NCBI GenBank assembly: GCA_964385945.1 | Contig: CAYLQJ010000002.1 | Span: forward strand, 1-44,603 | Origin: an uncultured Candidatus Saccharibacteria bacterium | GTDB taxonomy: Bacteria; Patescibacteriota; Minisyncoccia; Phycocordibacterales; UBA9973 | Direction of reading: 5' to 3' | Length of the DNA: 44,603 bases | Part shown: positions 4,583-35,393 of the stretch, one piece after another | How positions within the stretch are numbered: position 1 is the first letter of the stretch | Layout: every line of letters starts with the position of its first letter | Translations under genes and position numbers: made by a program | Notes under the pieces: model-generated | Database searches by the model: none | What the model was told of the DNA's origin: nothing | Seen by the model: the letters and a program-made list of their open reading frames with translations, nothing else

Positions 4583-4592
4583 AAATAATAAA

Positions 4593-4624
4593 AGGAAGCT
4601 ATAATAACAATAGCTTCCTTTTTG
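4593..4624. terminator. Bidirectional intrinsic terminator between convergent genes
   Basis: Perfect 10-bp stem AGGAAGCTAT / ATAGCTTCCT (4593-4602 / 4610-4619), 7-nt loop, A-run upstream and T-run downstream. Confidence 0.8.
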
Positions 4625-4638
4625 TTTTAACTTATTTT

Positions 4639-5022
4639 TTATTTTGGAGGACCATGATGGGTTTCATTGATTAAATCAAAATATTCTTTGTAATTTTCAC
4701 AAACTCCAGGAACATTACTTTTTTTAAACTCTGAATCATCTTGGTTTTTAAAACTCTCAAGCTCTTTTTGTGCTTTATCTAAATCAGAATAAATTTCTTT
4801 ATCATCTGTTTCAGAAGCAATAATTTCATCTTGCAATGAGATAATTTTTTGATTTTTCTGTACCACAAAATCAAGAACTAAAACAAAAAAGATAACATTC
4901 AGGATTCCTGTAATCCAGGAAACCCAATTTACAATATTAGCTGAAAAAATATTATTTGGATTAATTAAAAAAAAGAAGAAAATCCCAAAATTTAAAAAAC
5001 TTGCTATAACTAAATTTTTCAT
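4639..5022 (-). CDS. Hypothetical membrane protein
   Basis: ORF with two N-terminal hydrophobic segments and an acidic C-terminal half. No motif recognised. Confidence 0.5.
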   Translation of the reverse strand: MKNLVIASFLNFGIFFFFLINPNNIFSANIVNWVSWITGILNVIFFVLVLDFVVQKNQKIISLQDEIIASETDDKEIYSDLDKAQKELESFKNQDDSEFKKSNVPGVCENYKEYFDLINETHHGPPK

Positions 5023-7350: not shown

Positions 7351-8046
7351 TTAGTCTATCCAATTATTTATTTTTAATGCATTGAGAGCTGCTTGTTGCT
7401 CTGCTTCTTGCTTGGATTGGCCTTTACCTTGCGCTATTAAATCGGCTCCAAAATATATACCAATAGTAAAATGCTTATCATGATCAGGACCTGATTCATT
7501 AATAACTTTATATGAAGGTGTAAAAGCGACATACTCTTGGGCTTTTTCTTGTACTAAACTTTTCGCATCACGCCAAAGTTTTTTCTTTACTATTTCTTCA
7601 GTGTGAATCAAAAGAGTGCTAGCAATAAAATCTTTAGAAACTTCATAACCTTGATCTAAATATACTGCTCCAACATAAGCTTCATAAGTATTCGCTAATA
7701 TATATTGGCGAGCTTTACCGGTATCTTTAGCTTCACCTTTAGACAACAATAAGAAATCGTTCATACCGAGGGTACTTGCTACGTCAGAAATAATCACCGC
7801 ATTTACGAGCGCACTACGAAGAGCAGTCAATTCTCCTTCATCATAATCTTTATATTTTTTATAAAGAAAATCTGTAACGACTAACTCCACCACAGCATCA
7901 CCTAAAAATTCCAATCTTTCATTGTGAGAAAGACCGATATTTGGATTCTCGTTAATATATGAACGATGAATAAAAGCTTGCTTGATAAGATTCTTATCTT
8001 TAAAAATTATTTTTGTTTTTTCTTCAAAATCTGAAAATTGAATCAT
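7351..8046 (-). CDS. rnc: Ribonuclease III
   Basis: RNase III signature ERLEFLGDAVVEL. C-terminal dsRBD-like GPDHDKHFTIGIYFG...GQSKQEAEQQAA. rnc-smc adjacency is a common bacterial synteny. Confidence 0.95.
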   Translation of the reverse strand: MIQFSDFEEKTKIIFKDKNLIKQAFIHRSYINENPNIGLSHNERLEFLGDAVVELVVTDFLYKKYKDYDEGELTALRSALVNAVIISDVASTLGMNDFLLLSKGEAKDTGKARQYILANTYEAYVGAVYLDQGYEVSKDFIASTLLIHTEEIVKKKLWRDAKSLVQEKAQEYVAFTPSYKVINESGPDHDKHFTIGIYFGADLIAQGKGQSKQEAEQQAALNALKINNWID

Positions 8047-8060
8047 ATTATTAAATATTT

Positions 8061-8981
8061 TTATTTCTTTGAAATCACTTCCACAGCTTTAGCAAGTAAT
8101 GGAACGATATCATTATAAATTCTTAATTCTGGTATTTCTCTTAACTCAAACCACCTAGCTCCGTCTAATCCACCAGAGGCTTCTAATACTAATTCTTTGT
8201 ATTCTGATTCAGCAAGGAAATACGCAACGTGCTTTAGAGTCTTGCCCCGTTCTGGATGAGTAGCAACGTATTCATTTTCTCCAAGTTTAGTTATTATTTT
8301 TATATCAAGTCCTATTTCCTCTTTGATTTCTCTGACTGTACCAGCTTCTATATCTTCTGATGCTTCTATTTTACCTTTAGATAAAGTCCAGTATCCGAAC
8401 ACATCATGAACTAAAGCAAAATACACTTTGTCACCTTTTTTAGCATAGACTAGAGCGCCTCCTAATTTCTCTTTTGGTAATTTAGTTATATCTACAGGTT
8501 CATCAGACTTCTTTTTTTTACTAACTTCTTCTTTACCGGGCTCACCTATTTCTTTATACACAGCCCCAAGGACACCGTTTACGAATTTACTAGAATTCTC
8601 TCCACCGAAAGTTTTCGCTAACTCAATAGCTTCATTAATAGCTACTTTTGGAGGTACGTCTTTACGGTCACCAAAAAGAAGCTCGGTTAGACCGATTCTT
8701 AATATATTTCTATCTACCACAGATATCTTCTCTATCGGCCAATCAGGCGCAGCTTTAGTTATGATTTCATCAATCACAGCTTTTTTCTTGAGGATAGAGT
8801 CCACAAGATTATTCACGAAAATATCATCCTCGAGTCCAGGAGCAAATTCTTTTAAATTTCTCTTTAAAGCTTCTTCGATATCTTCTTTAGAAAAAACCTT
8901 AGGATTGTCTTTTGTCGACATAAAATCCCACTCAAAGAGAGTCTGAAGAACTATTGATCTTGAAAGGTGCCTATTTGCCAT
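8061..8981 (-). CDS. nusB: NusB (antitermination factor) fused to a C-terminal Nudix hydrolase domain
   Basis: NusB-like residues 1-145 (RSIVLQTLFEWDF..., DRNILRIGLTELLF, AINEAIELAKTFGGENSSKFVNGVLG), then a Lys-rich linker. Complete Nudix box GKIEASEDIEAGTVREIKEEIGL (G-x5-E-x7-REUxEExGU). Confidence 0.85.
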   Translation of the reverse strand: MANRHLSRSIVLQTLFEWDFMSTKDNPKVFSKEDIEEALKRNLKEFAPGLEDDIFVNNLVDSILKKKAVIDEIITKAAPDWPIEKISVVDRNILRIGLTELLFGDRKDVPPKVAINEAIELAKTFGGENSSKFVNGVLGAVYKEIGEPGKEEVSKKKKSDEPVDITKLPKEKLGGALVYAKKGDKVYFALVHDVFGYWTLSKGKIEASEDIEAGTVREIKEEIGLDIKIITKLGENEYVATHPERGKTLKHVAYFLAESEYKELVLEASGGLDGARWFELREIPELRIYNDIVPLLAKAVEVISKK

Positions 8982-10958: not shown

Positions 10959-11001
10959 GTATATGAAAAGACTCATAAATTTGATACTATTTAAAGATAC
11001 T

Positions 11002-12744
11002 ATGGAAAACAAAGACTTACAAAACAAAAGACATACTTTAGCCCACTTGCTCGCAAGTGCAGTTTTAGAAATTTATCCTGATACTAAAAACACTATCGGT
11101 CCCGCTATAGACGACGGATTTTATTATGATTTTGAATTTTCTACCCCAATTTCTGATAAAGACTTAGCTCAAATAGAGAACAAGATGAGAAAGATGTTGC
11201 CTAAATGGATAGAATTCTCACATCAAGAAAAGACCAAAGAAGAAGCAAGTGAGTATTTTCAAAATAATCCTTATAAATTAGAACTCATAAATGAGATAGC
11301 CGAAAAAGGTGAAAAAATAACTTTCTATACTTGTGGAGATTTTACTGATCTTTGCCGTGGAGGACATTCTGAAAATCCTAGTAAAGAAATCAATATTGAT
11401 TCATTCAAGCTCGATCGCGTCGCGGGAGCGTATTGGAGAGGAGATGAGAAGAATAAAATGCTAACTCGTATTTACGGACTCGCTTTTGAAACTAAAGAAG
11501 AATTAGAATCCTATTTAAATCAAAGAGAAGAAGCTCGCAAAAGAGATCACAAGAAGCTCGGTCGCGAATTAGACTTATTTACTTTTTCAGAATTAGTAGG
11601 AGCAGGTCTTCCCCTTTTCACTCCCAAAGGGACTCTAGTTAGAGATTTACTGGACGGTTTCGTTTGGGAACTCCGCCAAAAGGTAGGATACGAAAGAGTA
11701 GATATTCCTCATATTACCAAAAAAGAATTGTACGTTACTTCAGGCCACTGGGATAAATTCAAAGATGATTTATTCAGAATAAATACTCGTGAGGAACATG
11801 AATTCGCCATGAAACCAATGAATTGCCCTCACCACACTCAGATATATAACCGTCGTCAATGGAGTTATAAAGAACTTCCTCAAAGATATGCTTCTACAAC
11901 GAAAGTTTATCGCGACGAACAAACTGGTGAACTTGGAGGACTTTCTCGTGTACGTTCTATTACTCAGGACGACGCTCATGTATTCTGTAGACTAATTGAC
12001 GCTGGAATAGAAATGGAAAGAATTTATAATATTATAAAAACTTTTTATGGAGCTTTCGGTTTCGTTTTAACACCTAGACTTTCAATGCATGATCCAGCAA
12101 ATATGACTGCTTATCTAGGTACAGAAGAAACTTGGCAAAATTCAGAAAAAGCTCTTCGTGACATAATATTAAAAAATGGTGAGACTCCCATAGAAGCTCT
12201 CGGTGAAGCTGCTTTCTACGGACCAAAGATAGACTTCTTGGCAAAAGATGCTATTGGAAGAGAACACCAAGTCGCAACTATTCAACTCGATATGAATATG
12301 CCAGATAGATTTGATTTGTATTGTATCAATGAACAAGGAGAACAAGAGCGCATTGTTATGATTCACGCAGCTATTATGGGATCTATAGAGAGATTCATGT
12401 CTGTACTCATTGAACATGTAGGAGGTGCATTCCCTACCTGGCTTTCCCCTGTCCAAGTCTCTATCGTACCGGTCAGAGAGAATCATAATGATAAAGCTAG
12501 AGAAATCTATGAAGCTCTAAAACGCGAAGATATACGAGTAGAATTAGAAGACGACAATAATTCATTAGGTAAAAGAATCAACCATGCTAAAGCTCAAAAA
12601 GTCCCATACGTAGTAGTCTTAGGTGACAAAGAACTCGAGAGTGGAAATCTCACAGTAGAAAGTCGTACCGATAAACAAGAAATAACTCTAGAGAATTTCA
12701 TTCTAAAACTAAAAGAAGAAATTAAAAATAAAACTTTGAATTAA
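11002..12744 (+). CDS. thrS: Threonyl-tRNA synthetase lacking the N-terminal TGS domain
   Basis: Starts directly in the editing/second additional domain (RHTLAHLLASAV..., DLCRGGHSENPS). Class II core follows (FAMKPMNCPHHTQIY, YRDEQTGELGGLSRVRSITQDDAHVF), then the anticodon-binding domain. An alternative ATG at 10963 adds 13 aa. Confidence 0.95.
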   Translation: MENKDLQNKRHTLAHLLASAVLEIYPDTKNTIGPAIDDGFYYDFEFSTPISDKDLAQIENKMRKMLPKWIEFSHQEKTKEEASEYFQNNPYKLELINEIAEKGEKITFYTCGDFTDLCRGGHSENPSKEINIDSFKLDRVAGAYWRGDEKNKMLTRIYGLAFETKEELESYLNQREEARKRDHKKLGRELDLFTFSELVGAGLPLFTPKGTLVRDLLDGFVWELRQKVGYERVDIPHITKKELYVTSGHWDKFKDDLFRINTREEHEFAMKPMNCPHHTQIYNRRQWSYKELPQRYASTTKVYRDEQTGELGGLSRVRSITQDDAHVFCRLIDAGIEMERIYNIIKTFYGAFGFVLTPRLSMHDPANMTAYLGTEETWQNSEKALRDIILKNGETPIEALGEAAFYGPKIDFLAKDAIGREHQVATIQLDMNMPDRFDLYCINEQGEQERIVMIHAAIMGSIERFMSVLIEHVGGAFPTWLSPVQVSIVPVRENHNDKAREIYEALKREDIRVELEDDNNSLGKRINHAKAQKVPYVVVLGDKELESGNLTVESRTDKQEITLENFILKLKEEIKNKTLN

Positions 12745-12782
12745 AAAAACCTTAACTGTATAAATCCACTGTTAAGGTTTTC
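12743..12782. terminator. Bidirectional intrinsic terminator (thrS and the convergent orphan ORF)
   Basis: A-run, stem ACCTTAAC / GTTAAGGT (12749-12756 / 12771-12778), T-run. Confidence 0.7.
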
Positions 12783-12803
12783 AGATTTGCAAAAATCCTT
12801 TAT

Positions 12804-13241
12804 TTATTTTTTATAAACTAATAAAACCTTTACCATTTTAACTAATCTAGCTCCGAAAGATTCCATTAATATTATTTCCTCATCTCTGTCCTTAGGTTTT
12901 TGATTATGTATCTCTAAAACAAAATAATCTGACAACTCTTCGACAGATGAAGTTGAACATTTAACATGATCACCACCCCTTACAACTGAAGATGTGTGGC
13001 GAAATTGTTTCACATTAAAAATCTCTTTTGTTTCGGTAAAAGATAAATCGAAAAGATAAAGATGACAAGATTCATATTCTTCGTCTAACCCATAAGCATA
13101 GAAATCAAAATGCTTGAGGTTTCCAGTAAAAAAATGATCAAAAACCAAAAAGACACTCTGTCCAGTACTAATATTTTCGAACTTCAAAACTTGACCAGGT
13201 AGTAAATTTTGAAACTCTTTGAGAGAATTTAAAACAGTCAT
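12804..13241 (-). CDS. Hypothetical protein (145 aa), cassette ORF 1
   Basis: ORF preceded by conserved promoter block A. No motif recognised. Confidence 0.55.
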   Translation of the reverse strand: MTVLNSLKEFQNLLPGQVLKFENISTGQSVFLVFDHFFTGNLKHFDFYAYGLDEEYESCHLYLFDLSFTETKEIFNVKQFRHTSSVVRGGDHVKCSTSSVEELSDYFVLEIHNQKPKDRDEEIILMESFGARLVKMVKVLLVYKK

Positions 13242-13264
13242 AATGTATTAAATTTAAATGTGAT

Positions 13265-13318
13265 TTAAAAAGAAGTATTCTCCAAAACAATAACATTTTT
13301 AGATAAAATAGCAAGAAA
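13265..13318 (-). promoter_or_regulatory. Conserved promoter/operator block, copy A
   Basis: Minus strand: TTGCTA (13314-13309), 16 nt, TATTGT (13292-13287) with TG one nt upstream. About 90 percent identical to copies B and C. Confidence 0.55.
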
Positions 13319-13345
13319 ACAAAAACCTCTCAGACTTGAGAGGTT
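13316..13345 (-). terminator. Intrinsic terminator of the 13344-13805 gene
   Basis: Stem AACCTCTCA / TGAGAGGTT (13324-13332 / 13337-13345), 4-nt loop. The minus-strand RNA is followed by UUUUUGUUUU. Confidence 0.7.
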
Positions 13346-13805
13346 AATCTATATACTTTATTTCAATACCCAATTCTTCTGCTGTTTCGTGCTCCCAGAT
13401 AGCGCCTTTGGAACTTTGCCAATTGGGTAAAAAATAAAAAGTTTTGACTTTGCCAGACTTAAAAATTGGCAAATAAAAATCATTCATAATACTTTGATAA
13501 ACTTTTTCTTTATCTTGCTCTTCTGCTTTAAATTTTTGAATAGTTTCTTCGAAAGGCATTTGGTCAAAAATATTTATATTTTGTGATTGTAATTTTTTAA
13601 TATTTTGATTAAAAAAATCTAAGTTCTTTTCTATAGAATTAAAACCTCCATTAGTAACAGGTCCGCAAACTTGGCCTACAGGCAAAGGGATCCTATCAAT
13701 AATCCTTTCTGCAATAATAAAAAGATCAGGAATATTTTTAGCATTCGCTAAATCTTCCCAATCTTTTTCTTCCCAATATTTTAAAGTTATTTCACTAAAA
13801 TTCAT
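13344..13805 (-). CDS. Hypothetical protein, possibly DUF4406 / nucleoside 2-deoxyribosyltransferase-like
   Basis: VCGPVTNGG...NIFDQMPFE... and the C-terminal YFLPNWQSSKGAIWEHETAEELGIEI resemble the DUF4406 pattern (ISGPxTG ... LPGWxxSxGAxxExxxAxxLG), recalled from memory. The ORF-track start 13907 would include a terminator hairpin (13861-13879), so ATG 13805 is preferred. Confidence 0.4.
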   Translation of the reverse strand: MNFSEITLKYWEEKDWEDLANAKNIPDLFIIAERIIDRIPLPVGQVCGPVTNGGFNSIEKNLDFFNQNIKKLQSQNINIFDQMPFEETIQKFKAEEQDKEKVYQSIMNDFYLPIFKSGKVKTFYFLPNWQSSKGAIWEHETAEELGIEIKYID

Positions 13806-13832
13806 AATATAAATAAAATGTAACATAAATGC

Positions 13833-13860
13833 AATAAAAATTAAAGTTTGAATTAAAAAA
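13833..13860 (+). pseudogene. Short relic of the thrS 3' end (third copy)
   Basis: AAAGTTTGAATTAAAAAA (13843-13860) is an 18/18 match to the thrS-tail relic at 14950-14967 (..K S L N stop). As in the other two copies, a terminator hairpin follows directly. Confidence 0.4.
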
Positions 13861-13879
13861 CCAGAACTATGAGTTCTGG
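13855..13879 (-). terminator. Intrinsic terminator of the 13918-14193 gene
   Basis: Perfect 8-bp stem CCAGAACT / AGTTCTGG (13861-13868 / 13872-13879), 3-nt loop. The minus-strand RNA is followed by UUUUUU. Confidence 0.7.
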
Positions 13880-13917
13880 CAAAATATTCAACTTTGTATA
13901 TCATCAACTTAGCGAAT

Positions 13918-14193
13918 TTAATTACTCAATTTTTTCCCATTAAGCAATTGGGATATTTCTTCTTTTAGTAAATCTAAGTCTAAAACTCCTAAACGCTTGA
14001 AATCAGTTGAACCTCTTTTACTGTCTTTTGTTTTTTGCTTTTTGTGTAGTTTCCCACATTCATAAATTATATCTGCAATAAGTTGAAAAAATGGGTCCTC
14101 TCCTTCCTTTACCTCATTCAAAGAAGGATGAGCATGAACATCAGCACCTACAAGATACAATTTAAGTAGTTTTTTCTTTTCTTGCTCAGTCAT
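13918..14193 (-). CDS. Small hypothetical protein (91 aa), cassette ORF 2; paralog of 15021-15293
   Basis: YLVGADV...EGEDPFFQLIADIIYECGKLHKK aligns with YLLGIGG...QGKDKYFKIITDLLYDCGTRHKK in the 90-aa ORF. It has its own promoter block B and terminator. Confidence 0.6.
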   Translation of the reverse strand: MTEQEKKKLLKLYLVGADVHAHPSLNEVKEGEDPFFQLIADIIYECGKLHKKQKTKDSKRGSTDFKRLGVLDLDLLKEEISQLLNGKKLSN

Positions 14194-14214
14194 AAGTATT
14201 AAATTTAAAAAGTT

Positions 14215-14268
14215 ATTTAAAAAGAAATATTCCCTAAAACAATAACATTTTTAGGCAAAATAGCAAGA
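14215..14268 (-). promoter_or_regulatory. Conserved promoter/operator block, copy B
   Basis: Minus strand: TTGCTA (14266-14261), 16 nt, TATTGT (14244-14239). The inverted repeat CCTAAAA-N9-TTTTAGG (14233-14255) brackets the -10 box. Confidence 0.55.
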
Positions 14269-14364
14269 TTACTGTTCTAGATAAGACCTGCACCGTAATT
14301 TTACATAATATAAAAAATAAGCTAATATAAAAATGAATATCTTGTAACTCTTAAAAAAATAATT

Positions 14365-14757
14365 ATGTCTTACCAATCTTTAGAAATCAAAGATTTATAC
14401 ATTAAATCTCTTAATGAACAAAATGACACTCTTTTGGTAGCTATCTATCATTTATTAAACACAATTAATGGCTATCATTCTGTCACAGTAAAAGAATTAA
14501 ACGATTATTCTATAATAAAGGAAGAATCATTAAGGGAAAAAATAAAAATAATTCTTAAAACAAACAAACCACTTGATTTATTTAATACACTCTTAGAAAA
14601 TTCACCTAAAGAAGATGCAAAAAAATATCTTCTAAACTTAAAAGAAGAATTTATTCATACTATTTTATCTAGTCCTTATAATCAATCCAGATTCTCAGGA
14701 AGAAGAGCAAAAATGTTCACAAAAACAACAACAGAAAACATCAATCAAATACATTAA
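14365..14757 (+). CDS. Hypothetical protein (130 aa)
   Basis: ORF followed by a strong terminator. No motif recognised. Confidence 0.5.
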   Translation: MSYQSLEIKDLYIKSLNEQNDTLLVAIYHLLNTINGYHSVTVKELNDYSIIKEESLREKIKIILKTNKPLDLFNTLLENSPKEDAKKYLLNLKEEFIHTILSSPYNQSRFSGRRAKMFTKTTTENINQIH

Positions 14758-14761
14758 AATT

Positions 14762-14797
14762 AAAAGAGATAACCTTTATGGGATTATCTCTTTTTTA
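14762..14797. terminator. Bidirectional intrinsic terminator
   Basis: Perfect 8-bp stem AGAGATAA / TTATCTCT (14765-14772 / 14784-14791), A-run before and TTTTTT after. Confidence 0.75.
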
Positions 14798-14798
14798 T

Positions 14799-14840
14799 TT
14801 ATATATCAATCTCAGCAAGCTTCGCGTTAGATTGAACAAA
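14799..14840 (-). pseudogene. Displaced relic of the gyrB 3' end (last 13 codons + stop)
   Basis: Minus-strand translation is FVQSNAKLAEIDI* versus the real gyrB C-terminus FIQSNAKLAEIDI* (15794-15835). 9 of 42 nt differ and 8 of those are synonymous. Confidence 0.75.
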
Positions 14841-14866
14841 TTGTGCAACATCCGATGTTGCACAAT
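14840..14866. repeat. Perfect 12-bp inverted repeat with 3-nt spacer at the gyrB-relic / thrS-relic junction
   Basis: ATTGTGCAACAT-ccg-ATGTTGCACAAT (14840-14851 / 14855-14866). Confidence 0.9.
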
Positions 14867-14876
14867 GCGCAATTAA

Positions 14877-14963
14877 GTAGAAAGTCGTACAGACAAACAA
14901 GAAATGACCCTAGATAATTTCATTCTAAAACTTAAAGAAGAAATAAAAAAAAGTTTGAATTAA
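14877..14963 (+). pseudogene. Displaced relic of the thrS 3' end (28 codons + stop)
   Basis: Translates in frame to VESRTDKQEMTLDNFILKLKEEIKKSLN* versus the real thrS end VESRTDKQEITLENFILKLKEEIKNKTLN* (12655-12744). Most nt differences are synonymous, plus one codon indel. Confidence 0.85.
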
Positions 14964-15000
14964 AAAAGCCTTAACTATATAAATATATAATTAAGACTTT
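14962..15000. terminator. Terminator hairpin homologous to the thrS terminator; better in the minus orientation (serves the 15021-15293 gene)
   Basis: Stem GCCTTAA / TTAAGAC (one mismatch) at 14968-14974 / 14991-14997. The minus-strand RNA is followed by UUUUUU; the plus strand has only TTT. Confidence 0.5.
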
Positions 15001-15020
15001 CAAATGTATTAAAACTAAAA

Positions 15021-15293
15021 TCAACTTTCAAACAAAAGCTCATTCACAGCTGATGTTTGGAGCGTTACTTTAATTGATTTTGGAGCACGACAAGGATTTC
15101 TTAATTTTTTGGCTTTTTCAAGTTCTTCTATGTCTTTTTTATGACGTGTACCACAATCATAAAGTAAATCAGTAATAATTTTAAAATATTTGTCTTTCCC
15201 TTGTTGTAAATAAATCAAGCCGGCTGTATTACCGCCAATTCCAAGAAGATAGGCTCTAAGGATTTGTTTTATAAAAGTAATTTTATCTAACAT
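15021..15293 (-). CDS. Small hypothetical protein (90 aa), cassette ORF 3; paralog of 13918-14193
   Basis: See the paralog alignment above. Preceded by promoter block C. Confidence 0.6.
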   Translation of the reverse strand: MLDKITFIKQILRAYLLGIGGNTAGLIYLQQGKDKYFKIITDLLYDCGTRHKKDIEELEKAKKLRNPCRAPKSIKVTLQTSAVNELLFES

Positions 15294-15315
15294 GTTAAAA
15301 AATTAAGTTGTGAAA

Positions 15316-15368
15316 TAAAAAGAAATATTCCCTAAAACAATAACATTTTTAGGCAAAATAGCAAGAAA
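15316..15368 (-). promoter_or_regulatory. Conserved promoter/operator block, copy C
   Basis: Minus strand: TTGCTA (15364-15359), 16 nt, TATTGT (15342-15337). Nearly identical to copy B over about 50 nt. Confidence 0.55.
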
Positions 15369-15395
15369 GAATTAAAAATTAAAAATGTAGGTTTA

Positions 15396-15788
15396 TTAAC
15401 TTACCCTACTAGTAATAAACAGAGAATCGAACATTTGGAATTTGTACCATACATATAAAATAATAAATAATACAAATAAACTTATTATTAATGATAAAAT
15501 TGAATATTTTTCCGCTCCCTTTTGAGATCTAAAAAATAAATTCAAAGCAAAGAAAATAGATAAAACATTAAAAATTAATATTAAAATTGGTAAAAGAAAG
15601 CCTAACTTTTCTAACCCAGAAGATGATTCACCCTTCATACCTAATCCAAAGCTTATAGCTATCATTATCATAAACAACAAAAAAAATAAAAAATTAAAAC
15701 CAATTTGGAAAAATGGAAGTGCTATTTCCCACTTACTTCTAATTTGTTTTTGATTACTAGGTTCTTGTTTAATATTTATTTCAACCAT
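15396..15788 (-). CDS. Hypothetical integral membrane protein (130 aa)
   Basis: Three to four hydrophobic helices. Starts 5 nt after the gyrB stop, so it is probably co-transcribed. Confidence 0.55.
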   Translation of the reverse strand: MVEINIKQEPSNQKQIRSKWEIALPFFQIGFNFLFFLLFMIMIAISFGLGMKGESSSGLEKLGFLLPILILIFNVLSIFFALNLFFRSQKGAEKYSILSLIISLFVLFIILYVWYKFQMFDSLFITSRVS

Positions 15789-15793
15789 ATTTT

Positions 15794-17887
15794 TTAGATA
15801 TCAATCTCAGCGAGTTTGGCATTACTTTGAATGAATGATTTTCTTGGAGGGACTTCAGAACCCATCAATATATCAAATACTTTATTGGCTTCTTCAGCGT
15901 TAGCTATGTCTACTCTTTTCAAGACTCTCTTCTTTGGATCCATAGTAGTCTCCCAGAGTTCTTCAGGATTCATTTCTCCGAGACCTTTATATCTTTGGAT
16001 GTGGAATTTAGTAGATTTTGCTTTAGTTACTTCTTCACTCTCTTCCCCTTCTTCTTCAATAGTTTGAACTTCTTCATTTTGAATCTCAGAAATATCAACC
16101 TCTTTACCTATGATTTTATTTCTCTCTTCATCAGTATAAGCGTAATGAATCTCTTTACCTCTCTTGATTTTATAAAGTGGTGGTTGAGCGATATATACAT
16201 ACCCCGCTTCTAGAACTGGTCTAAAATATCTATAGAATAAAGTTAGGAGCAATGTACGGATGTGTGATCCGTCGACGTCAGCATCCGTCGCGATTATGAT
16301 TTTGTGATAACGAATTTTTTCAAGATCAAAAGTATCTCCGATAGAAGTTCCCATAGCTATAACTAGGGCACGGACTTCTTTAGAAGCGAGCATCTTATCA
16401 ATACGAGCACGTTCGACGTTCAATATCTTTCCACGGAGTGGGAGAATAGCTTGAGTACGTCTATCACGGCCTTGCTTGCCAGACCCACCCGCAGAATCTC
16501 CCTCCACTATGAATATCTCAGATTCTTCGGCGCTCTTACTCTGGCAGTCAGCAAGCTTACCAGGGAGAGTCATACCTTCAAGCGCACCTTTACGTAATAC
16601 GGAATCTTTCGCGGCTTTGGCTGCTTTACGAGCTTTAAGAGCTAGGATCGATTTGTTGATTATTATCTTTGCTTCATCAGGATTCTCTTCTAAGAAACTA
16701 GCGAAAGCTTCTCCAAAAACAGTAGCTGTGGCTCCTTGAGCTTCCATACTACCAAGTTTAGCTTTAGTTTGACCTTCGAATTGTATTTCACGAAGTTTGA
16801 CTGAAACCACAGCCGTCAAACCTTCGAGGACGTCTTCCCCGGTGAATCCTCCTTCTGCCTCCTTCATCATTTCATTCTTTTTACAATAAGTGTTCAGCGT
16901 ACGAGTGAGTGCAGTTTTAAAACCTGTGATATGAGTACCACCTTGAGGTGTGTGAATGTTGTTAGCAAATCCTACGATACGATCTACGATATCATCTACG
17001 TATTGCAAAGCTATTTCAACTCCCACGCCATCGATTTCTTTTTCAATATAGAAAATATTATTTTGAATTGCTTTTTGGAATTTGTTGTAATATTTAACAA
17101 GAGAGATAAGTCCTCCTTCGAAATAATAACTAATAGAAGGTACTTCGAGACCTAATTCTCTAAAATAATAAACATCCTCAAGATTTAATTTAGAACCTTT
17201 AGAATATACTAGAGTCTCAGCATCCATCTCTCTCGCATCAATCACAGAGATTTTTAATCCCCTGACGAGGTAAGCTTGTTGGCGAATATGGTTTATCACA
17301 GTACTCCAATCAAAAACAATTTTCCCGAAGATTTCTTCGTCTGGAGTAAAAGTAATTATTGTTCCGTGAAGTTTAGAAGTTCCAATTTTCTTTACTGCTC
17401 CCTTTTTCTTTCCTTGAGAATATTCTTGCATGTGCTTGCCTCCGTCTCGGTGAACTTCAGCACGACAGAAAATAGAAAGAGCGTTCACGACGGACGCTCC
17501 CACTCCGTGAAGACCTCCAGAAACTTTATATCCACTTCCGTCCCCACCGAATTTTCCTCCCGCATGCAGAGTAGTCATGACTGTTTCTAATGCAGAAACT
17601 TTAGTCTTGCTGTGAAGATCCACTGGGATTCCACGACCGTTATCCACGACGCGAATAGTATTCCCTGGTAGTAAAGTTATCTCAATATCATCACAAAAAC
17701 CTCCCATAGCTTCATCGCGTGAGTTGTCGAAAATTTCCCAAATAAGGTGATGAAGACCGTCTGGACCTGTTGTACCGATATACATTCCGGGACGCTTACG
17801 AACCGGCTCTAGACCCTCTAAGACGGATATCTGATCCGCTCCATAGCTACCCTCTTTTGATTTTTTAGTTTCTTTTTCCTTTGCCAT
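15794..17887 (-). CDS. gyrB: DNA gyrase subunit B
   Basis: GHKL ATPase motifs (LHHLIWEIFDNSRDEA, DNGRGIPV, GGLHGVGASVVNALS), Toprim (EIFIVEGDSAGGS, IIIATDADVDGSHI) and the C-terminal tail QRYKGLGEMNPEELWETTM. Confidence 0.97.
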   Translation of the reverse strand: MAKEKETKKSKEGSYGADQISVLEGLEPVRKRPGMYIGTTGPDGLHHLIWEIFDNSRDEAMGGFCDDIEITLLPGNTIRVVDNGRGIPVDLHSKTKVSALETVMTTLHAGGKFGGDGSGYKVSGGLHGVGASVVNALSIFCRAEVHRDGGKHMQEYSQGKKKGAVKKIGTSKLHGTIITFTPDEEIFGKIVFDWSTVINHIRQQAYLVRGLKISVIDAREMDAETLVYSKGSKLNLEDVYYFRELGLEVPSISYYFEGGLISLVKYYNKFQKAIQNNIFYIEKEIDGVGVEIALQYVDDIVDRIVGFANNIHTPQGGTHITGFKTALTRTLNTYCKKNEMMKEAEGGFTGEDVLEGLTAVVSVKLREIQFEGQTKAKLGSMEAQGATATVFGEAFASFLEENPDEAKIIINKSILALKARKAAKAAKDSVLRKGALEGMTLPGKLADCQSKSAEESEIFIVEGDSAGGSGKQGRDRRTQAILPLRGKILNVERARIDKMLASKEVRALVIAMGTSIGDTFDLEKIRYHKIIIATDADVDGSHIRTLLLTLFYRYFRPVLEAGYVYIAQPPLYKIKRGKEIHYAYTDEERNKIIGKEVDISEIQNEEVQTIEEEGEESEEVTKAKSTKFHIQRYKGLGEMNPEELWETTMDPKKRVLKRVDIANAEEANKVFDILMGSEVPPRKSFIQSNAKLAEIDI

Positions 17888-17909: not shown

Positions 17910-19742
17910 TTATCTAACCTGCCAATCAGGGTTTTCCTTTATTTTATTAGTTATAATATCCATAATGCTATTTACTTCTAGGTCTGTTAGGGTCTTTTCA
18001 TAAGACTGAAACACAACACGAAAACCATAGGAAGTTCTACCCTCTTTAGTAAATGAATCAAACATAACAGGACCTTTCACACAAAGCTCTGTTGTATTCT
18101 CTTTAATTAAATTCTCTAAGTTCTGACTACCTTCTGTCTCAGGAACCCAGACGGCGATATCGCGAGTGATGAATGGAAACAAACTCCACATCTCAAAAGC
18201 TTCACCTGTATGCTTTTTATGATGGTCTGGTTGAGGCGAAGACGACCCGAGGATCTCAGAAAAAGTATCAGGTGAAGCTTTTGTTGAGAACTCTTTAATA
18301 AAATCACTTAGGGTCATCTCTGTAATATTTTTACGATCTCCAAAAGCTACATGCAGAACTTCAGCATTATCTTTAAAAACTTTTCCAATTTCAAAAACTT
18401 TAACTTCTTTAATATTTAAAAGTGGTAAATTGTTTTGATTTAATTTTACGCTTTCTTTTAATCCGTCTGTGATATTTGTACGTAAGAATTTTTTATCTGA
18501 CGCACTAGCTAGGACTTCTACTTCTCCAGTAGAAGCAAAAGAATAAGTCATAACTTCGGAATACCCTAATCCAAGCAAGATAGATCGAGCTACCAAAGAA
18601 TTAGAATACACTTCATTCTTTTTAGGTACGAATGCTAACTTTGGAATTTTAGGATTCAATTTATCATAACCAAGAATTCTACCTACTTCTTCAGCCATAT
18701 CTTCTTCTAGATTTAAATCAAGACGCATTGGCGGAACTATGATCGCATAGATAGAATCTTTTATAGTAAATTCAAAATGATATCTTTCTAATATATTTTG
18801 CATCTGTACCGGAGTCACTGTAATACCTAAAATATTTGAAATACGGTTAAGATCAAAAGATAATTTTCTACCTTCTGTTTGGATCTTGTAAACGTCCACC
18901 ACATCTTCAAAATTAGAAAAACCATATTCCATCAAAAGCCCGGAGAGTTCCATCATGGCTAAATCCCCTAAAGATGGAGATAAATCATTCTCAAATCTTT
19001 TCGCCGAATCAGTAAAAATCCCGATTCTGCGAGCGGTCTTGCGGACAGCAACTGGATCAAAGTTCGCTATCTCAAGTAAAATATTCTTAGTATTATTATC
19101 CACCTCAGCCACCTTGCCACCCTTCACTCCCGCAATAGCTAAAACATTGCTATCGTCAGCTATAACTACGTCTGTACTCTCTAATTTTACTTGCTTATTG
19201 TCGAGCGTAGTCATCTCTTCTCCAGGGAGAGCATAACGCACTACGATAGAACCAGTTATTTTATCGAAATCAAAAGCATGAGCGGGTTGACCAAGATTAT
19301 ACATGACTAAATTTGTCGCATCTACGATATTGTTTATACTTCTAGCCCCAATAGATTCTAGATGATTTGTCACCCATCCTGGGCTAGGAGCAACTTTTAT
19401 ATCACGCACAATACATCCCATATAACGACGAACGTTTGGAGCAGTTATTTCTATTTTTAAATTTGTATTTTTAGGTTCAGGTTTCTTATATTTCTCTAAA
19501 GAATGAACGAAAGGGATAGAGAGCAATGAGGCAAGTTCTGAAGCGATACCCATATGAGAAAGTAAATCATGAGCCCGATTCGGTAAAATATTTATATCAA
19601 AAATATAATCTTTATTCTCGCCTTCTCCGATCTCTTCTACTCCTTCAACTTCACAAAGATGATAAGTAAAAACATCCTCCAAGGTTTTATGACTCGGCGC
19701 TTCAGGTATGTACCATTTTAACCAGTTATAAGATATTTTCAT
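17910..19742 (-). CDS. pheT: Phenylalanyl-tRNA synthetase beta subunit, short form (610 aa; the OB-fold tRNA-binding B2 domain appears absent)
   Basis: Typical N-terminus MKISYNWLKWYIP. B3/4 and B5 regions present, and an FDX-ACB-like C-terminus (SYGFRVVFQSYEKTLTDLEVN). Lies directly downstream of pheS. Confidence 0.9.
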   Translation of the reverse strand: MKISYNWLKWYIPEAPSHKTLEDVFTYHLCEVEGVEEIGEGENKDYIFDINILPNRAHDLLSHMGIASELASLLSIPFVHSLEKYKKPEPKNTNLKIEITAPNVRRYMGCIVRDIKVAPSPGWVTNHLESIGARSINNIVDATNLVMYNLGQPAHAFDFDKITGSIVVRYALPGEEMTTLDNKQVKLESTDVVIADDSNVLAIAGVKGGKVAEVDNNTKNILLEIANFDPVAVRKTARRIGIFTDSAKRFENDLSPSLGDLAMMELSGLLMEYGFSNFEDVVDVYKIQTEGRKLSFDLNRISNILGITVTPVQMQNILERYHFEFTIKDSIYAIIVPPMRLDLNLEEDMAEEVGRILGYDKLNPKIPKLAFVPKKNEVYSNSLVARSILLGLGYSEVMTYSFASTGEVEVLASASDKKFLRTNITDGLKESVKLNQNNLPLLNIKEVKVFEIGKVFKDNAEVLHVAFGDRKNITEMTLSDFIKEFSTKASPDTFSEILGSSSPQPDHHKKHTGEAFEMWSLFPFITRDIAVWVPETEGSQNLENLIKENTTELCVKGPVMFDSFTKEGRTSYGFRVVFQSYEKTLTDLEVNSIMDIITNKIKENPDWQVR

Positions 19743-21584: not shown

Positions 21585-21594
21585 GAAATAATTT

Positions 21595-22113
21595 TTATAA
21601 ATTTTGTAAAAGTAAATCACTATAAGAAACAGAAATATAATCTTCTTTTTTGATAGCTAATTTTTCAATATAAGTTTGACATTGCTCCTCTAATTTTTCT
21701 TTACCAATTGTTCCATCACTATCAATTGCCTCAATTTCCACAAAAGTACCCAAATCTTTTACTGTATCAATATGAAATTTTACATTTTCAATAAAATATA
21801 TTTCTCTAATCTTGTCCACCACAGTAAGTATTCCATTCGCGTTTATTAACACATCTTTTAGATTTGATTGCGGATTAGATTCATATAGTAAAACTTTCGA
21901 TTGTTTTGGTGTTAATGAATTTTCTCTTTCATAATAAACCAAAAAGTTTTCTATATTCCCCTCACGAAGCTTTAGGCGACCATTCGCTACTTTGAAATAA
22001 GTGTCGATTTGATGGTCTGTTCCTTTGAAATCAGCCGCTAATTTAAGTAAGGTATTCCTAATAAGATTATGATCATCACATTTTGCTTTTATCTCTATAT
22101 TTAAATGTTTCAT
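21595..22113 (-). CDS. CYTH-domain protein (class IV adenylate cyclase / triphosphatase family)
   Basis: Size (172 aa) and N-terminal strand HLNIEIKAK (ExExK-like, first Glu replaced by Asn). Alternating beta-strand pattern with conserved acidic/basic residues (RLKLRE, FVEIEA). Confidence 0.6.
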   Translation of the reverse strand: MKHLNIEIKAKCDDHNLIRNTLLKLAADFKGTDHQIDTYFKVANGRLKLREGNIENFLVYYERENSLTPKQSKVLLYESNPQSNLKDVLINANGILTVVDKIREIYFIENVKFHIDTVKDLGTFVEIEAIDSDGTIGKEKLEEQCQTYIEKLAIKKEDYISVSYSDLLLQNL

Positions 22114-22119
22114 GAATGT

Positions 22120-22147
22120 ATTTTATCAGTTTATTAAATTACTGCAA
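22120..22147 (-). promoter_or_regulatory. Sigma70-like promoter of the CYTH gene (leaderless geometry)
   Basis: Minus strand: TTGCAG (22147-22142), 16 nt, TAAAAT (22125-22120), 6 nt, ATG 22113. Confidence 0.4.
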
Positions 22148-22154
22148 ACTAATA

Positions 22155-22179
22155 ACTCTTGAGGCCTTGCCTAAAGAGT
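22155..22179. repeat. REP-like hairpin, copy 1 (overlaps the transposase stop codon)
   Basis: ACTCTTGAGGC-ctt-GCCTAAAGAGT: 11-bp stem with one G/A mismatch. Confidence 0.8.
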
Positions 22180-22833
22180 TTTATCGTAATTAATCCAGTC
22201 AAAAATTTCAGTATTAAAAGCTTTCTTAGTTGGGAAATAGTTTGGAAAATTTTCTAAATTTAATATCTTTTTCTCAGTTCTGTCTATTTCTAAAAAATCA
22301 ACATAACTAGAATATAAATAATTAGAAAGATAATCTAAAGATTGTTTTTTGTTTTTTATACCCCTTTCTTTCCAATCTTTTTGTATCAACTTAACAGGAT
22401 TTAAATGAATATAAGAAAATATATATTTTAAATATTTATCATTCTTTATATATTGAGCTTTAAATTTACCTTCGAATAAACTACCAGTTCTTTTATATTT
22501 AAGATTAAAATACATAACATAAGCAGTAGAAAGTTTTTGCATAAATCGACTAACCCCATTTTCTACAAGAGGTGTTATTAAAATGTGAAAATGATTTGGC
22601 ATTAGACAATATGAACCGACAGCAACTAACGGACTTTGATTTGATCTGTTATAAACAGAAACACCTTTTAAAGAGTCAGAAAAATTAAATTTATCTTCAT
22701 TATTTAAAGCATACAATAAATCTCTAAACCTTAAATAATCATTTTTATCTAAAAATATTTCTTGCTTACTATTTCCTCTGTTGTACAGATGATAAAACTC
22801 TCCAATTTCAAATTTTATATTTCTAATAGACAT
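22171..22833 (-). CDS. REP-associated tyrosine transposase (IS200/IS605-like Y1 HUH family)
   Basis: HUH motif in CLMPNHFHILITP. Catalytic-Tyr region YIFSYIHLNPVK. Size 220 aa. Confidence 0.8.
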   Translation of the reverse strand: MSIRNIKFEIGEFYHLYNRGNSKQEIFLDKNDYLRFRDLLYALNNEDKFNFSDSLKGVSVYNRSNQSPLVAVGSYCLMPNHFHILITPLVENGVSRFMQKLSTAYVMYFNLKYKRTGSLFEGKFKAQYIKNDKYLKYIFSYIHLNPVKLIQKDWKERGIKNKKQSLDYLSNYLYSSYVDFLEIDRTEKKILNLENFPNYFPTKKAFNTEIFDWINYDKTL

Positions 22834-22855
22834 AATTATATTATATACCCAACTT

Positions 22856-22880
22856 ACTCTTGAGGCAAGGCCTAAAGAGT
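22856..22880. repeat. REP-like hairpin, copy 2 (upstream of the transposase)
   Basis: ACTCTTGAGGC-aag-GCCTAAAGAGT: same arms and same mismatch as copy 1, but the loop is reverse-complemented. Confidence 0.8.
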
Positions 22881-22918
22881 AATATTATTCAAAGTCAAAA
22901 TCCCCTTTTGCAAGAAAT

Positions 22919-22957
22919 TAAAAAAAGTCTGAATTGTAAATAAATACAATCCAGACT
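22919..22957 (-). terminator. Intrinsic terminator of the 22973-23884 gene
   Basis: 13-bp stem 22926-22938 / 22945-22957. The single A-C mismatch on the plus strand becomes U-G on the minus-strand RNA, which is followed by UUUUUUU. Confidence 0.7.
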
Positions 22958-22972
22958 TAAATTTGATTAAAA

Positions 22973-23884
22973 TTAATTGGTTTTTAATTTTAAAATTTTT
23001 AAAGAAATTATCCTATAAGATAAAACTCCTATAATTCCCCCAGCAAACATACCAACGAGAACAGAGTCATAACTGTAGCCGACAATTCCCCCTATTAAAC
23101 AATTAATCCCAACTAACAATCTTATATCAGAATGAATTAAGATGAATAAATTTTTGAAAAAATTTATTACTATCCAAAAGTAAGGTGTTGTATTCTTTGC
23201 TAAAAACTTTAAAAATAAAAATATATAGCAAGAAGTCATGACAATAGAAATCAAAGGCAATAATAGATAAAAAATAAAGAGTTTGCTTTCTTTTTTATCA
23301 ATTAAATTAACTATTCTATTCAAACGCCAGAAATTAAATATTTTTTTATCATTAACATCATCTTGGTACGGAAAATAAAAATTCATAGCTACAAGCAAAG
23401 AAATAATTTCTGAGAATATGCCGCAGACTAAAAGAAAAGCAAATAAAAATATTGATATTTTAACAAAAAATGAAAAACTAAAAAAAACTACCCCAACATA
23501 AAGAATCCCAATTAAATTTAAAATAATTCTTAAAATCAAAATCAAATTGGGAAGTTTCAGATTTGCTTTTGATTGTTTCCAAGCTTTTGGTATAGCTTCT
23601 TTTACTTTTTGGTAATCGTAGGTTAGATAACCTGCAAATCCTCCTATTAAAATTCCAACCCACCATAGTAAGCCAAAATTAATAGATAACAATGTACCAA
23701 TACCTGCTCCAATAAAACAAGATAAAAAAATCATTACAGAATTACTAGTTCTCATGTTTATTAAATTTTCAAAGATTAATAAATATATATTCAAAGTCAT
23801 TAAAACACAGATCAGGGCTTTTTGCAATAAATTGACTAACATCATAGAACAAGTTAGACTGAACAAAGTTATTAGTTTTTTCAA
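22973..23884 (-). CDS. Hypothetical polytopic membrane protein with glycine-zipper-like segments
   Basis: Many hydrophobic helices. GAGIGTLLS...GILIGGFAGY near the N-terminus and LIGGIVGY...GMFAGGIIGVLSY near the C-terminus. The ORF-track start 23884 is a TTG and the true start is uncertain. Confidence 0.5.
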   Translation of the reverse strand: MKKLITLFSLTCSMMLVNLLQKALICVLMTLNIYLLIFENLINMRTSNSVMIFLSCFIGAGIGTLLSINFGLLWWVGILIGGFAGYLTYDYQKVKEAIPKAWKQSKANLKLPNLILILRIILNLIGILYVGVVFFSFSFFVKISIFLFAFLLVCGIFSEIISLLVAMNFYFPYQDDVNDKKIFNFWRLNRIVNLIDKKESKLFIFYLLLPLISIVMTSCYIFLFLKFLAKNTTPYFWIVINFFKNLFILIHSDIRLLVGINCLIGGIVGYSYDSVLVGMFAGGIIGVLSYRIISLKILKLKTN

Positions 23885-23967
23885 AAGAGAAAATCCTAAA
23901 ACTAATCTCTTTTAAGAAAAGAGAAAAAGTTCTTTGAGGTTTGGTATTTTCAAAAGTGATATTGTAT

Positions 23968-24086
23968 TGAGTGCTACGAACACTCTACCATTATGAGTTT
24001 TAACTCACCAATATCAAAAAAACAGGAGAACTGAAACATCTAAGTACCCTGGAATCCGTACTTGCTAATATGTACGGATTTTTTAT
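23968..24086 (+). ncRNA. Candidate small RNA: orphan 23S rRNA domain-I-like fragment ending in an intrinsic terminator
   Basis: 24024-24052 reads AGGAGAACTGAAACATCTAAGTACCCTGG. The core matches the highly conserved 23S segment recalled from E. coli (GGGGAACUGAAACAUCUAAGUACCCC). A TGaTATTGT box lies at 23957-23965 and a terminator at 24053-24086. There is no rRNA 5' end or downstream 23S sequence. Confidence 0.4.
24053..24086 (+). terminator. Plus-strand intrinsic terminator
   Basis: Perfect 9-bp stem AATCCGTAC / GTACGGATT (24053-24061 / 24072-24080), 10-nt loop, then TTTTTTATTT. In the minus orientation no U-tract follows the hairpin. Confidence 0.7.
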
Positions 24087-32131: not shown

Positions 32132-32701
32132 TTAAACATCGTCTTCATAATAAGTTAACTCAATTTCACGTTCTACTTTATTTGGACTAGTAGAAATACA
32201 ATCTGTATTGTCTCCTCCTAAGTTATAACCTTTGGATATAATTTTAGTCTGAATTTGATTTGGTGTTCCAGATATAGGTGTCTTAGTTACTTTAACGATA
32301 GAGCAAGCTTTACCAGAAGGACCTAAGTTATGTAAAATAAATTCCCAAGGTCCAACAGTACTATATCCATCAGTAAAATCAAAAGCGGTACCTGCACATT
32401 GTAAAGTTAAGTCATCTCCACCATTGTAACCAAAAGGATTTTCATAATCCCCAAAAGGAGTTTGAACCCACTTAAAATCATAATACAAAGCACATTCAAT
32501 ACCAGTATCAGAAGCAAAAAATGCATCCCCGGTATTCTTAGCGGAAGTACCAAAACTTATTTCTTTATAAGTAATATCAGCAAGACCTAATGAGACAGAA
32601 AGAATAATACTAGTCAAAACTACAGCAAAAAGAATCACAAATCCTTCATTTTGATTTTCATTTTTTAAAACTATAGGATTTTGTTTTTTAAATAATTTCA
32701 T
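32132..32701 (-). CDS. PilX-like pilus-associated protein (hydrophobic N-terminal helix, no Glu5)
   Basis: N-terminus ...NENQNEGFVILFAVVLTSIILSVSLGL. Last gene of the minor-pilin block. Confidence 0.4.
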   Translation of the reverse strand: MKLFKKQNPIVLKNENQNEGFVILFAVVLTSIILSVSLGLADITYKEISFGTSAKNTGDAFFASDTGIECALYYDFKWVQTPFGDYENPFGYNGGDDLTLQCAGTAFDFTDGYSTVGPWEFILHNLGPSGKACSIVKVTKTPISGTPNQIQTKIISKGYNLGGDNTDCISTSPNKVEREIELTYYEDDV

Positions 32702-32705
32702 ATTA

Positions 32706-33302: not shown

Positions 33303-33309
33303 ATTTTAT

Positions 33310-33918: not shown

Positions 33919-33921
33919 ATT

Positions 33922-34542: not shown

Positions 34543-34548
34543 TTAATT

Positions 34549-35334: not shown

Positions 35335-35340
35335 TCTTTT

Positions 35341-35349: not shown

Positions 35350-35360
35350 ATATATCTAAA

Positions 35361-35392: not shown

Positions 35393-35393
35393 T

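Follow-up and report, generated by a model that had tools for sequence, protein, structure and literature searches.

The 44,603-nucleotide stretch of DNA analyzed here (contig CAYLQJ010000002.1, positions 1 to 44,603, referred to as the window) contains the genes thrS, which encodes threonyl-tRNA synthetase (10963-12744, plus strand; Pfam tRNA_SAD, tRNA-synt_2b and HGTP_anticodon), and gyrB (15794-17887, minus strand) in convergent orientation, with their stop codons at 12744 and 15794 separated by 3.05 kb. The two genes serve as anchors for an array of three like-oriented units, whose direct repeats are spaced regularly at 1.1 kb in a self-comparison of the window. An earlier note, made from the sequence by itself, had described a three-module array at this position, and every element that it listed is present to within a few nucleotides. 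Since a truncated gyrB 3' end abuts a truncated thrS 3' end inside the array, it is better described as three whole thrS–gyrB intervals placed head to tail.

Unit I extends from 12745 to approximately 13832. It begins with hairpin 1 (12745-12782; −14.8 kcal/mol, z −4.3), a two-way terminator common to thrS and to the slot gene A145 (12804-13241, minus strand; 145 amino acids), and continues with promoter block 1 (50-nt core at 13267-13316, minus strand). The remainder of the unit is formed by B153 (13344-13805, minus strand), which encodes a DUF4406 or nucleoside 2-deoxyribosyltransferase-like protein, and its terminator hairpin (13324-13345, minus strand), a homolog of which is found in the related loci L085 and L088 as the hairpin at the end of gyrB. 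Unit II (13833-14841) opens directly to the right of junction J2 with a relic of the thrS tail of about eight codons (relic 2; 13833-13860, plus strand; NKN*SLN*), followed by hairpin 2 (13860-13880; −13.1 kcal/mol, z −4.6), the terminator of the slot gene C91 (13918-14193, minus strand), whose product belongs to a small helical family with the pattern Y..G ... [YF][ED]CG..KK. Block 2 (14219-14268, minus strand) and the accessory gene D130 (14365-14757, plus strand) come next, and a two-way terminator (14762-14794) stands between D130 and a relic of the gyrB tail (14798-14841, minus strand), which comprises 13 codons and a stop codon. Next comes junction J3 with its filler of 34 nt (14842-14875), after which unit III (14876-15793) starts with a longer thrS-tail relic (relic 3; 14876-14963, plus strand; 28 codons and a stop codon, in frame). 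Hairpin 3 (14964-15001; −15.9 kcal/mol, z −5.3) is homologous to hairpin 1 and terminates the slot gene E90 (15021-15293, minus strand), a paralog of C91. Block 3 (50-nt core at 15317-15366, minus strand) is followed by the accessory gene of unit III, F130 (15396-15788, minus strand), which encodes a small hydrophobic, probably membrane protein and lies directly 3' of the live gyrB.

The part of the live thrS tail that is homologous to the relics comprises the last 91 nt of the gene (12654-12744, plus strand; self-comparison). Relic 3 is 91% identical to this tail over 75 nt; extending the comparison through the hairpin gives 84% identity over 133 nt. As previously claimed, it translates in frame, into VESRTDKQEMTLDNFILKLKEEIKKSLN followed by a stop codon. 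Comparison with the live codons reveals five synonymous changes, four conservative non-synonymous changes and one deleted codon; the earlier wording that the differences are mostly synonymous is therefore overstated. The variant residues of relic 3 (M, D and KS) are all present in functional thrS tails of relatives (e.g. L086, L087 and L098; the prefix L denotes the 102 loci that were fetched). The much shorter relic 2 is recognized by the 18-mer AAAGTTTGAATTAAAAAA, which occurs exactly at 13843-13860 and at 14950-14967, and, in the live tail, at 12731-12748 with one mismatch. Allowing two mismatches at most, 0.08 occurrences are expected and none of 100 shuffled sequences gave three matches, so that the short relic, for which a chance match in AT-rich DNA had been a concern, lies beyond chance. 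Relic 2 also provides the U-tract of the C91 terminator.

The gyrB relic encodes FVQSNAKLAEIDI and a stop codon, where the real GyrB C-terminus reads FIQSNAKLAEIDI and a stop codon. It matches the gyrB tail of L085 at 40 of 42 positions and the window's own gyrB tail at 33 of 42, and the nine positions that differ from the latter correspond to seven synonymous codons and one conservative non-synonymous codon. Because the variants of thrS relic 3 recur in functional tails of relatives and the changes in the gyrB relic are mostly synonymous, both relics look like working alleles of other lineages. The gyrB relic stands back-to-back with thrS relic 3, with only the 34-nt filler in between, which is the junction expected from one thrS-to-gyrB segment placed ahead of another. 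The description in the earlier note did not include the gyrB relic. The filler itself has no match in the window or in loci L001–L099, and contains most of a palindrome with 12-bp arms, ATTGTGCAACAT-CCG-ATGTTGCACAAT (14840-14866), which occurs nowhere else in the window and in none of the 102 loci. A motif common to J2 and J3 was considered and rejected; the best local alignment between the two junctions scores 14, a value matched by 258 of 2000 shuffles and by 55 of 391 native controls.

Each slot gene is preceded by a promoter block, the 33-nt core of which is found with at most two mismatches at 13284-13316, 14236-14268 and 15334-15366 (0 expected; 100 shuffles). The block reads, in gene orientation, TCTTGCTATTTTGCCTAAAAATGTTATTGTTTTAGGGAATATTTCTTTTT and holds the hexamer TTGCTA, a 16-nt spacer and an extended −10-like element, TGTTATTGT. 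The start codon of the slot gene is located 35–40 nt downstream of the block core, and the block adjoins the terminator of the upstream gene, so that no other promoter fits. Among lineages whose last 300 nt of thrS are 80–90% identical, the block is conserved at 88–98%. From its position, its hexamers and its conservation we infer that the block acts as a promoter. An alternative assignment as a structured RNA or attC-like site was rejected, as the consensus fold reaches −2.4 kcal/mol and has no supporting covariation. The block is found only between gyrB and thrS in every lineage that carries it; a scan of JGI metagenomes returned one match, again at the thrS–gyrB locus, and viral contigs returned none. 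Blocks 2 and 3 are identical at 51 of 51 positions, whereas the orthologous block of L100 and L099 differs at 4–6 positions, which makes it likely that blocks 2 and 3 were homogenized by gene conversion after stacking. As direct repeats, these two blocks could also delete or excise the intervening 1098 bp.

The three unit hairpins, with folding energies of −13 to −16 kcal/mol and z scores of −4.3 to −5.3, are ordinary terminators, and the sequence of hairpin 2 is unrelated to those of hairpins 1 and 3. In each slot-gene terminator, the U-tract is the complement of the thrS stop codon and the A-run that follows it, and at least the last few thrS codons consequently travel with, and survive in, every unit.

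A single unit is found at the thrS–gyrB locus of seven related lineages: L085/L088–L092, L087, L093–L097, L099, L100/L101, L086 and L102, where the contigs of L086 and L102 end before gyrB. In the lineage of L085/L088–L092 (~93% nucleotide identity to the window; six contigs from five samples) the order is gyrB, hairpin, block, a 115-aa gene, hairpin and thrS; in L087 (91% nucleotide identity in the thrS 3' end) it is gyrB, a 276-aa open reading frame (ORF), block, a 73-aa gene and thrS; and in L086, whose threonyl-tRNA synthetase (ThrRS) is 71% identical to that of the window, it is block, a 128-aa gene and thrS. Loci L093–L097 (ThrRS ~65% amino acid identity) have gyrB, a B153 homolog, hairpin, block, a 130-aa gene and thrS, which is the architecture of unit I. 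As the B153 homolog is located directly 3' of gyrB in L005 and in L093–L097, B153 marks the gyrB-side end of unit I, and the 88% amino acid identity between B153 and its L093 homolog (177-638), high relative to the ~65% identity of ThrRS, suggests that B153 moves horizontally with the slot.

The closest counterpart of unit II is provided by L099 and L100/L101, in which thrS, hairpin, slot gene, block, a D130 gene (96% amino acid identity), terminator and an intact gyrB follow one another. L099 and L100 are 95–96% identical to the window from 14218 and 14191, respectively, to 14840, the gyrB relic included, and both contigs then enter a complete gyrB; unit II is thus a whole L100-like interval cut 14 codons into gyrB. 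The homology to L100 begins exactly at the ATG of the slot gene (14191-14193). The slot genes are not the same, with 131 aa encoded in L100 and a 55-aa zinc-finger protein in L099, which indicates that exchange of slot genes also takes place between the block and the thrS tail. The 95–96% match of unit II, the closer fit of the gyrB relic to L085 than to the window's own gyrB, and the occurrence of the relic 3 residues in relatives support the earlier suggestion that the copies were imported from related lineages, and argue against duplication in situ followed by decay.

Locus L098 (2948-4489), whose ThrRS is 98% identical to that of the window, provides a further relic. Its live thrS is followed by a gene for a DoxX/MauE-like membrane protein, a 219-aa gene and a thrS relic of 22 codons, which is closest to the thrS tail of L099 (63 of 66 positions, versus 57 of 66 for the tail of L098 itself), and then by the hairpin that ends gyrB in L085. 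The L098 relic is an independent event with a different cargo. The thrS breakpoints vary, at 8 and 29 codons in the window and at 22 codons in L098, and define no fixed site.

The products of the slot genes are small. A145 and E90 are ORFans, and the sole match of A145 among 5.8 billion proteins is A145 itself. C91 and E90 are 37% identical over 46 residues; searches with this family returned few homologs, every one of them at a thrS–gyrB locus. The AlphaFold model of E90 consists of four helices (mean pLDDT 79) and has no neighbor in the PDB, with a best Foldseek E-value of 0.76. The slot genes have no match in Pfam, PHROGs or PADLOC, and no toxin, immunity or defense family was found among the cargo. 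The slot genes of L099 (351-517, minus strand) and L100 (146-541, minus strand) encode a treble-clef zinc finger with the motif CxxC...YCSxxCCxxH (VATC, 28 bits; zf-FCS weak), which in L100 is fused to an N-terminal domain of the C91/E90 type. Located beside gyrB, these proteins may parallel the small zinc-finger gyrase inhibitor YacG.

The same arrangement is present in four independent assemblies (JGI 3300032333, ENA ERZ21930279, ENA ERZ28594864 and Logan SRR12712853), which are colinear with the window at 99.1–100% identity without insertions or deletions, and there is no presence/absence variation of the array across them. In the comparison with L001–L004, positions 12640-15958, i.e. the array together with 105 nt of thrS and 165 nt of gyrB, are 100% identical, and the Logan contig L004 spans the central junction J3 at 100% identity. 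The flanks, on the other hand, form a mosaic of patches dense in single-nucleotide polymorphisms (SNPs). One patch in thrS (12153-12639) holds 41 SNPs in 487 nt (8.4%) and ends 15 nt before the tail homology; others lie at 11118-11307 (16 SNPs), in gyrB at 16544-16664 (15 SNPs in 121 nt), at 7771-8175 and in pheT, and positions 17928-17990 also fall among the SNP-dense parts of the flanks. Local divergence in these patches is 8–12%, similar to that between the thrS relic and the live tail, and the mosaic points to frequent short-tract homologous recombination with relatives that are 8–12% divergent.

None of the ORFs of at least 120 aa in the 44.6-kb window that were scanned with, or annotated by, Pfam encodes a tyrosine or serine recombinase, integrase or resolvase, and the six ORFs in 12745-15793 match no recombinase family in Pfam and give no relevant match in PHROGs or PADLOC. 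The earlier remark that the window holds no recombinase is accordingly correct for tyrosine and serine recombinases, and needs amending for an IS200-like Y1/HUH protein at 22171-22833 (32 bits versus a cut-off of 23; HFH motif), the sole transposase-like protein. In the 93%-identical L088 the unit is present though the stretch that carries the Y1 gene is absent. That stretch (21590-24077) is 2.5 kb of low GC content (0.25–0.26) encoding a CYTH protein, the Y1/HUH protein and a membrane-protein-like 303-aa ORF without a Pfam match, and represents a second indel between core genes, without visible relics.

A type IV pilus cluster (32132-44151) encodes PilM, a PilO-like protein, two T2SSE ATPases, PilC, a prepilin peptidase and several N-methyl pilins. 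Saccharibacteria have been shown to undergo com-dependent natural transformation with homologous recombination, and conservation of the com genes extends across the phyla of the candidate phyla radiation (CPR) (PMC10633639). Given this conservation and the pilus cluster in the window, DNA uptake is plausible in the window's lineage. Within the cluster, a 143-nt repeat with 78% identity (35856-35998 and 36430-36569) is common to two pilin genes.

Based on the anatomy of the array, the relics, the single-unit relatives, the variable breakpoints and the recombination mosaic of the flanks, all of which are directly observed, we propose that the thrS–gyrB gap of this Paceibacterota genus is a hypervariable slot swapped by homologous recombination, and that the array was stacked through events that each combine one homologous with one illegitimate join; we regard this reading as probable. 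The slot would normally consist of one transcription unit, made up of the ~50-nt promoter block, a small fast-evolving gene and a hairpin terminator that overlaps the thrS stop codon, sometimes with an accessory gene on the gyrB side, and slot alleles would be exchanged between lineages by homologous recombination with the thrS 3' end, the block and the gyrB 3' end as anchors. On two occasions in the window's lineage, and once in L098, the exchange would have been imprecise. DNA from a relative would have crossed over homologously inside thrS and supplied a new thrS tail, while the far end of the incoming DNA, instead of crossing over in gyrB, would have been joined illegitimately within the resident thrS tail, such that the incoming interval was added ahead of the resident interval and did not replace it. 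The event at J3 would have left 29 old thrS codons, 14 donor gyrB codons and the 34-nt filler, the event at J2 would have left eight old thrS codons, and blocks 2 and 3 would later have been made identical through gene conversion. The process would amount to homology-facilitated illegitimate recombination after DNA uptake; the assignment of donor and resident intervals is one that we infer, and the retention of old units may carry a benefit. The earlier note's view of the relics as old thrS 3' ends that were displaced when insertions brought in a replacement tail is upheld in this scheme. Nothing found in the window calls for a dedicated cassette recombinase.

Several observations weigh against this proposal. 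The scheme does not account for the palindromic filler of J3, and J2 has no recognizable gyrB relic, a comparison with the gyrB–B153 joint of L093 being unconvincing. All three known illegitimate joins fall within the last 30 codons of thrS, which is tighter than random joining predicts; the clustering may reflect selection for an intact terminator of the old unit, or a local site preference. None of the events was seen directly, no two-unit intermediate strain was found, and units I and III have no sampled single-unit counterpart with the same slot genes. A scan for the sigma-70 consensus did not call the block, 8 of whose 12 hexamer positions match, and natural transformation has not been shown beyond Saccharibacteria (PMC10633639).

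An alternative origin by tandem duplication, in which the segment from the thrS tail to the gyrB tail was duplicated in situ twice and the copies were later changed by allele replacement and gene conversion, would leave the same junction of gyrB tail and thrS tail, and it can draw on the identity of blocks 2 and 3, which indicates gene conversion within the array, and on the frequency of homologous imports in the flanks. A simple duplication predicts roughly uniform divergence, whereas identity between the slot genes C91 and E90 is no more than 37% over 46 aa, the relics are young at 91% identity and blocks 2 and 3 are 100% identical; the 37% identity of the slot genes beside a non-coding relic that is 91% identical excludes uniform divergence in situ. 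The elaborated version takes more steps, since a foreign allele must have taken the place of every unit, down to thrS relic 3 and a gyrB relic that has no function, and the right part of unit II is 95–96% identical throughout to a foreign single-unit locus. We therefore consider tandem duplication unlikely. An assembly artefact, in which the assembler strung together variants of a single-unit locus from co-occurring strains, has in its favor that single-unit relatives with shared repeats exist, and yet it is scarcely credible: different pipelines gave the identical, indel-free arrangement in four independent assemblies, the longest exact repeat, at 51 nt, stays below the k (87) stated in the contig names of one assembly, and J3, which L004 spans, is novel sequence composed of a truncated gyrB, a unique filler and a truncated thrS that mis-threading could not produce.

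The units might instead be dedicated mobile cassettes of ~1.1 kb that target the thrS 3' end or the block with a recombinase encoded elsewhere, for which the Y1/HUH protein is a possible candidate. The like orientation of the units and the 1.1-kb spacing of their direct repeats are in line with this, as are the three strikes on the thrS tail (L098 included), the conservation of the block (88–98%) where the thrS 3' end is 80–90% identical, the perfect palindrome at J3 and the presence of a Y1_Tnp-like gene in the window. We nevertheless judge it very improbable, since what was inserted is an allelic copy of this very locus with a piece of gyrB in it, the breakpoints at 8, 22 and 29 codons have no common motif, and the J3 palindrome recurs neither in the window nor in the 102 loci. 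Furthermore, the block has no conserved structure, is confined to thrS–gyrB and is absent from viral contigs; no integrase or resolvase was found among the scanned ORFs of the window; the array does not vary in presence across the four assemblies; and L088 has a unit without the Y1 gene. The integron-like, trans-mobilized cassette targeting thrS that the earlier note had raised is not supported, given the allelic insert with its gyrB piece, the varying breakpoints, the lack of a common motif and of an integrase among the scanned ORFs, the promoter-like hexamers of the unstructured block, and the separate promoter block and terminator hairpin of every unit. A related speculation, to which we attach a low but slightly higher likelihood, is that the block and the thrS tail with its terminator are the two ends of a circulating cassette, where circles of ~1.1 kb, formed via the direct repeats (the identical blocks 2 and 3, or the tails that are 84% identical over 133 nt), re-enter the block or thrS tail of other genomes. 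If true, Paceibacterota would have an integrase-free, integron-like collection of hypervariable small genes, and old units might be retained as still protective, like orphan immunity genes.

The closest species-representative genomes are metagenome-assembled genomes of Paceibacterota (Patescibacteria/CPR), with ThrRS identities of 76% and 74%, and convergent thrS and gyrB are common across the group. The thrS–gyrB gap in 21 loci measured ranges from none (the frames overlap in L015) to ~7 kb, with content that is unrelated between species. None of these loci, which belong to 21 other Patescibacteria species, has the promoter block or a tail relic; the locus is therefore a hot spot where accessory genes gather in general, with the block and the relics restricted to a single genus-level clade. 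Scans of the window with Rfam (gathering thresholds) and for tRNAs gave one tRNA-Ser, at 30017, and nothing in the array. An exact look-up of the window's thrS protein found no encoding contig, the protein itself being present in the collection. With respect to the window as a whole, the sign of the GC skew flips at ~4000-5000, where gene orientation converges (plus strand to the left, minus strand to the right), possibly the replication terminus, ~8 kb from the array. Positions 1-296, at the beginning of the window, contain overlapping direct repeats, 1-188 and 109-296, that are 74% identical in the self-comparison.

If stacking by imprecise exchange is correct, the array would be a clean natural example of how a streamlined uncultured CPR bacterium may gain genes without mobile-element machinery, through recombination with relatives that is anchored in essential genes and in which joins are occasionally imprecise, so that alleles are stacked rather than replaced. 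It would also represent a previously undescribed hypervariable slot of one Paceibacterota genus, which combines a promoter block with fast-evolving ORFans, some of them with a treble-clef zinc finger, and may be a place of conflict between strains or of interaction with a host. A more general caution is that relics of gene 3' ends by themselves are no evidence of site-specific integrating elements.

Of the known systems, integron arrays adjoin a gene for a tyrosine recombinase, IntI, and their cassettes end in attC, an imperfect inverted repeat folding as single-stranded DNA, are promoterless and are read from a common Pc promoter. The window resembles them in its small, like-oriented units of ~1 kb, with newer units displacing older ones, but has no IntI, attI or attC-type sites, and its units come with their own promoter-like block and terminator and are bounded by junctions that are not fixed. 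Islands at the 3' ends of tRNA and tmRNA genes carry an integrase inside the element, identical att cores at both ends and a fixed crossover. The duplicated 3' end of the target, the use of the incoming copy by the live gene and the displacement of the old end are shared with the window, which differs in that it has no integrase or identical att core (the relics are 84–91% identical) and in that the insert is an allele of the same interval.

Homology-facilitated illegitimate recombination combines one homologous anchor with one illegitimate join, and yields variable junctions, possibly with filler or microhomology (PMC3240628); it is known from naturally transformable bacteria (de Vries & Wackernagel 2002, PMC122324; Prudhomme et al. 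2002, PMC122325; Meier & Wackernagel 2003; as cited in PMC5361080). It was defined experimentally with selectable markers, whereas here it would be read from junction anatomy alone, and the 34-nt palindromic filler of the window is unusual for it. In the orphan Rhs and CdiA-CT systems, the latter of contact-dependent growth inhibition (CDI), displaced 3' ends of one gene are reported to be strung downstream of the live copy, each retaining some homology through which recombination can recur (PMC3150448, PMC3967940; Poole et al. 2011 and Koskiniemi et al. 2014, as cited in PMC5361080). The displaced 3' ends in those systems are variable toxin domains, whereas the thrS tail is a conserved by-product of 8–29 codons and the variable genes of the window lie on the strand opposite to it.

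A further likeness is to the orphan immunity arrays of the Vibrio cholerae type VI secretion system (T6SS), whose modules were acquired horizontally and inserted successively with a homology anchor in a conserved upstream gene, such that older units were pushed downstream and kept, and whose array units serve other strains as their primary module (Kirchberger et al. 2017, PMC5361080). Homology-facilitated illegitimate recombination was proposed for these arrays and for orphan Rhs 3' ends, and the absence of an integrase was noted (PMC5361080). As in T6SS, Rhs and CDI arrays, 3' fragments of the anchor gene recur downstream of the live gene in the window, units are the sole or primary ones elsewhere (unit II in L099/L100, the architecture of unit I in L093) and the junctions are variable and without a recombinase site. 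The window differs from the T6SS arrays in that the anchor is a housekeeping aminoacyl-tRNA synthetase gene, a relic of gyrB as second anchor is present too, every unit comes with a conserved promoter block, the cargo has no toxin, immunity or defense match, and the host is a CPR bacterium. The array is thus of the displacement or orphan-array type, unusual in its two housekeeping anchors, in the relics of both and in its CPR host.

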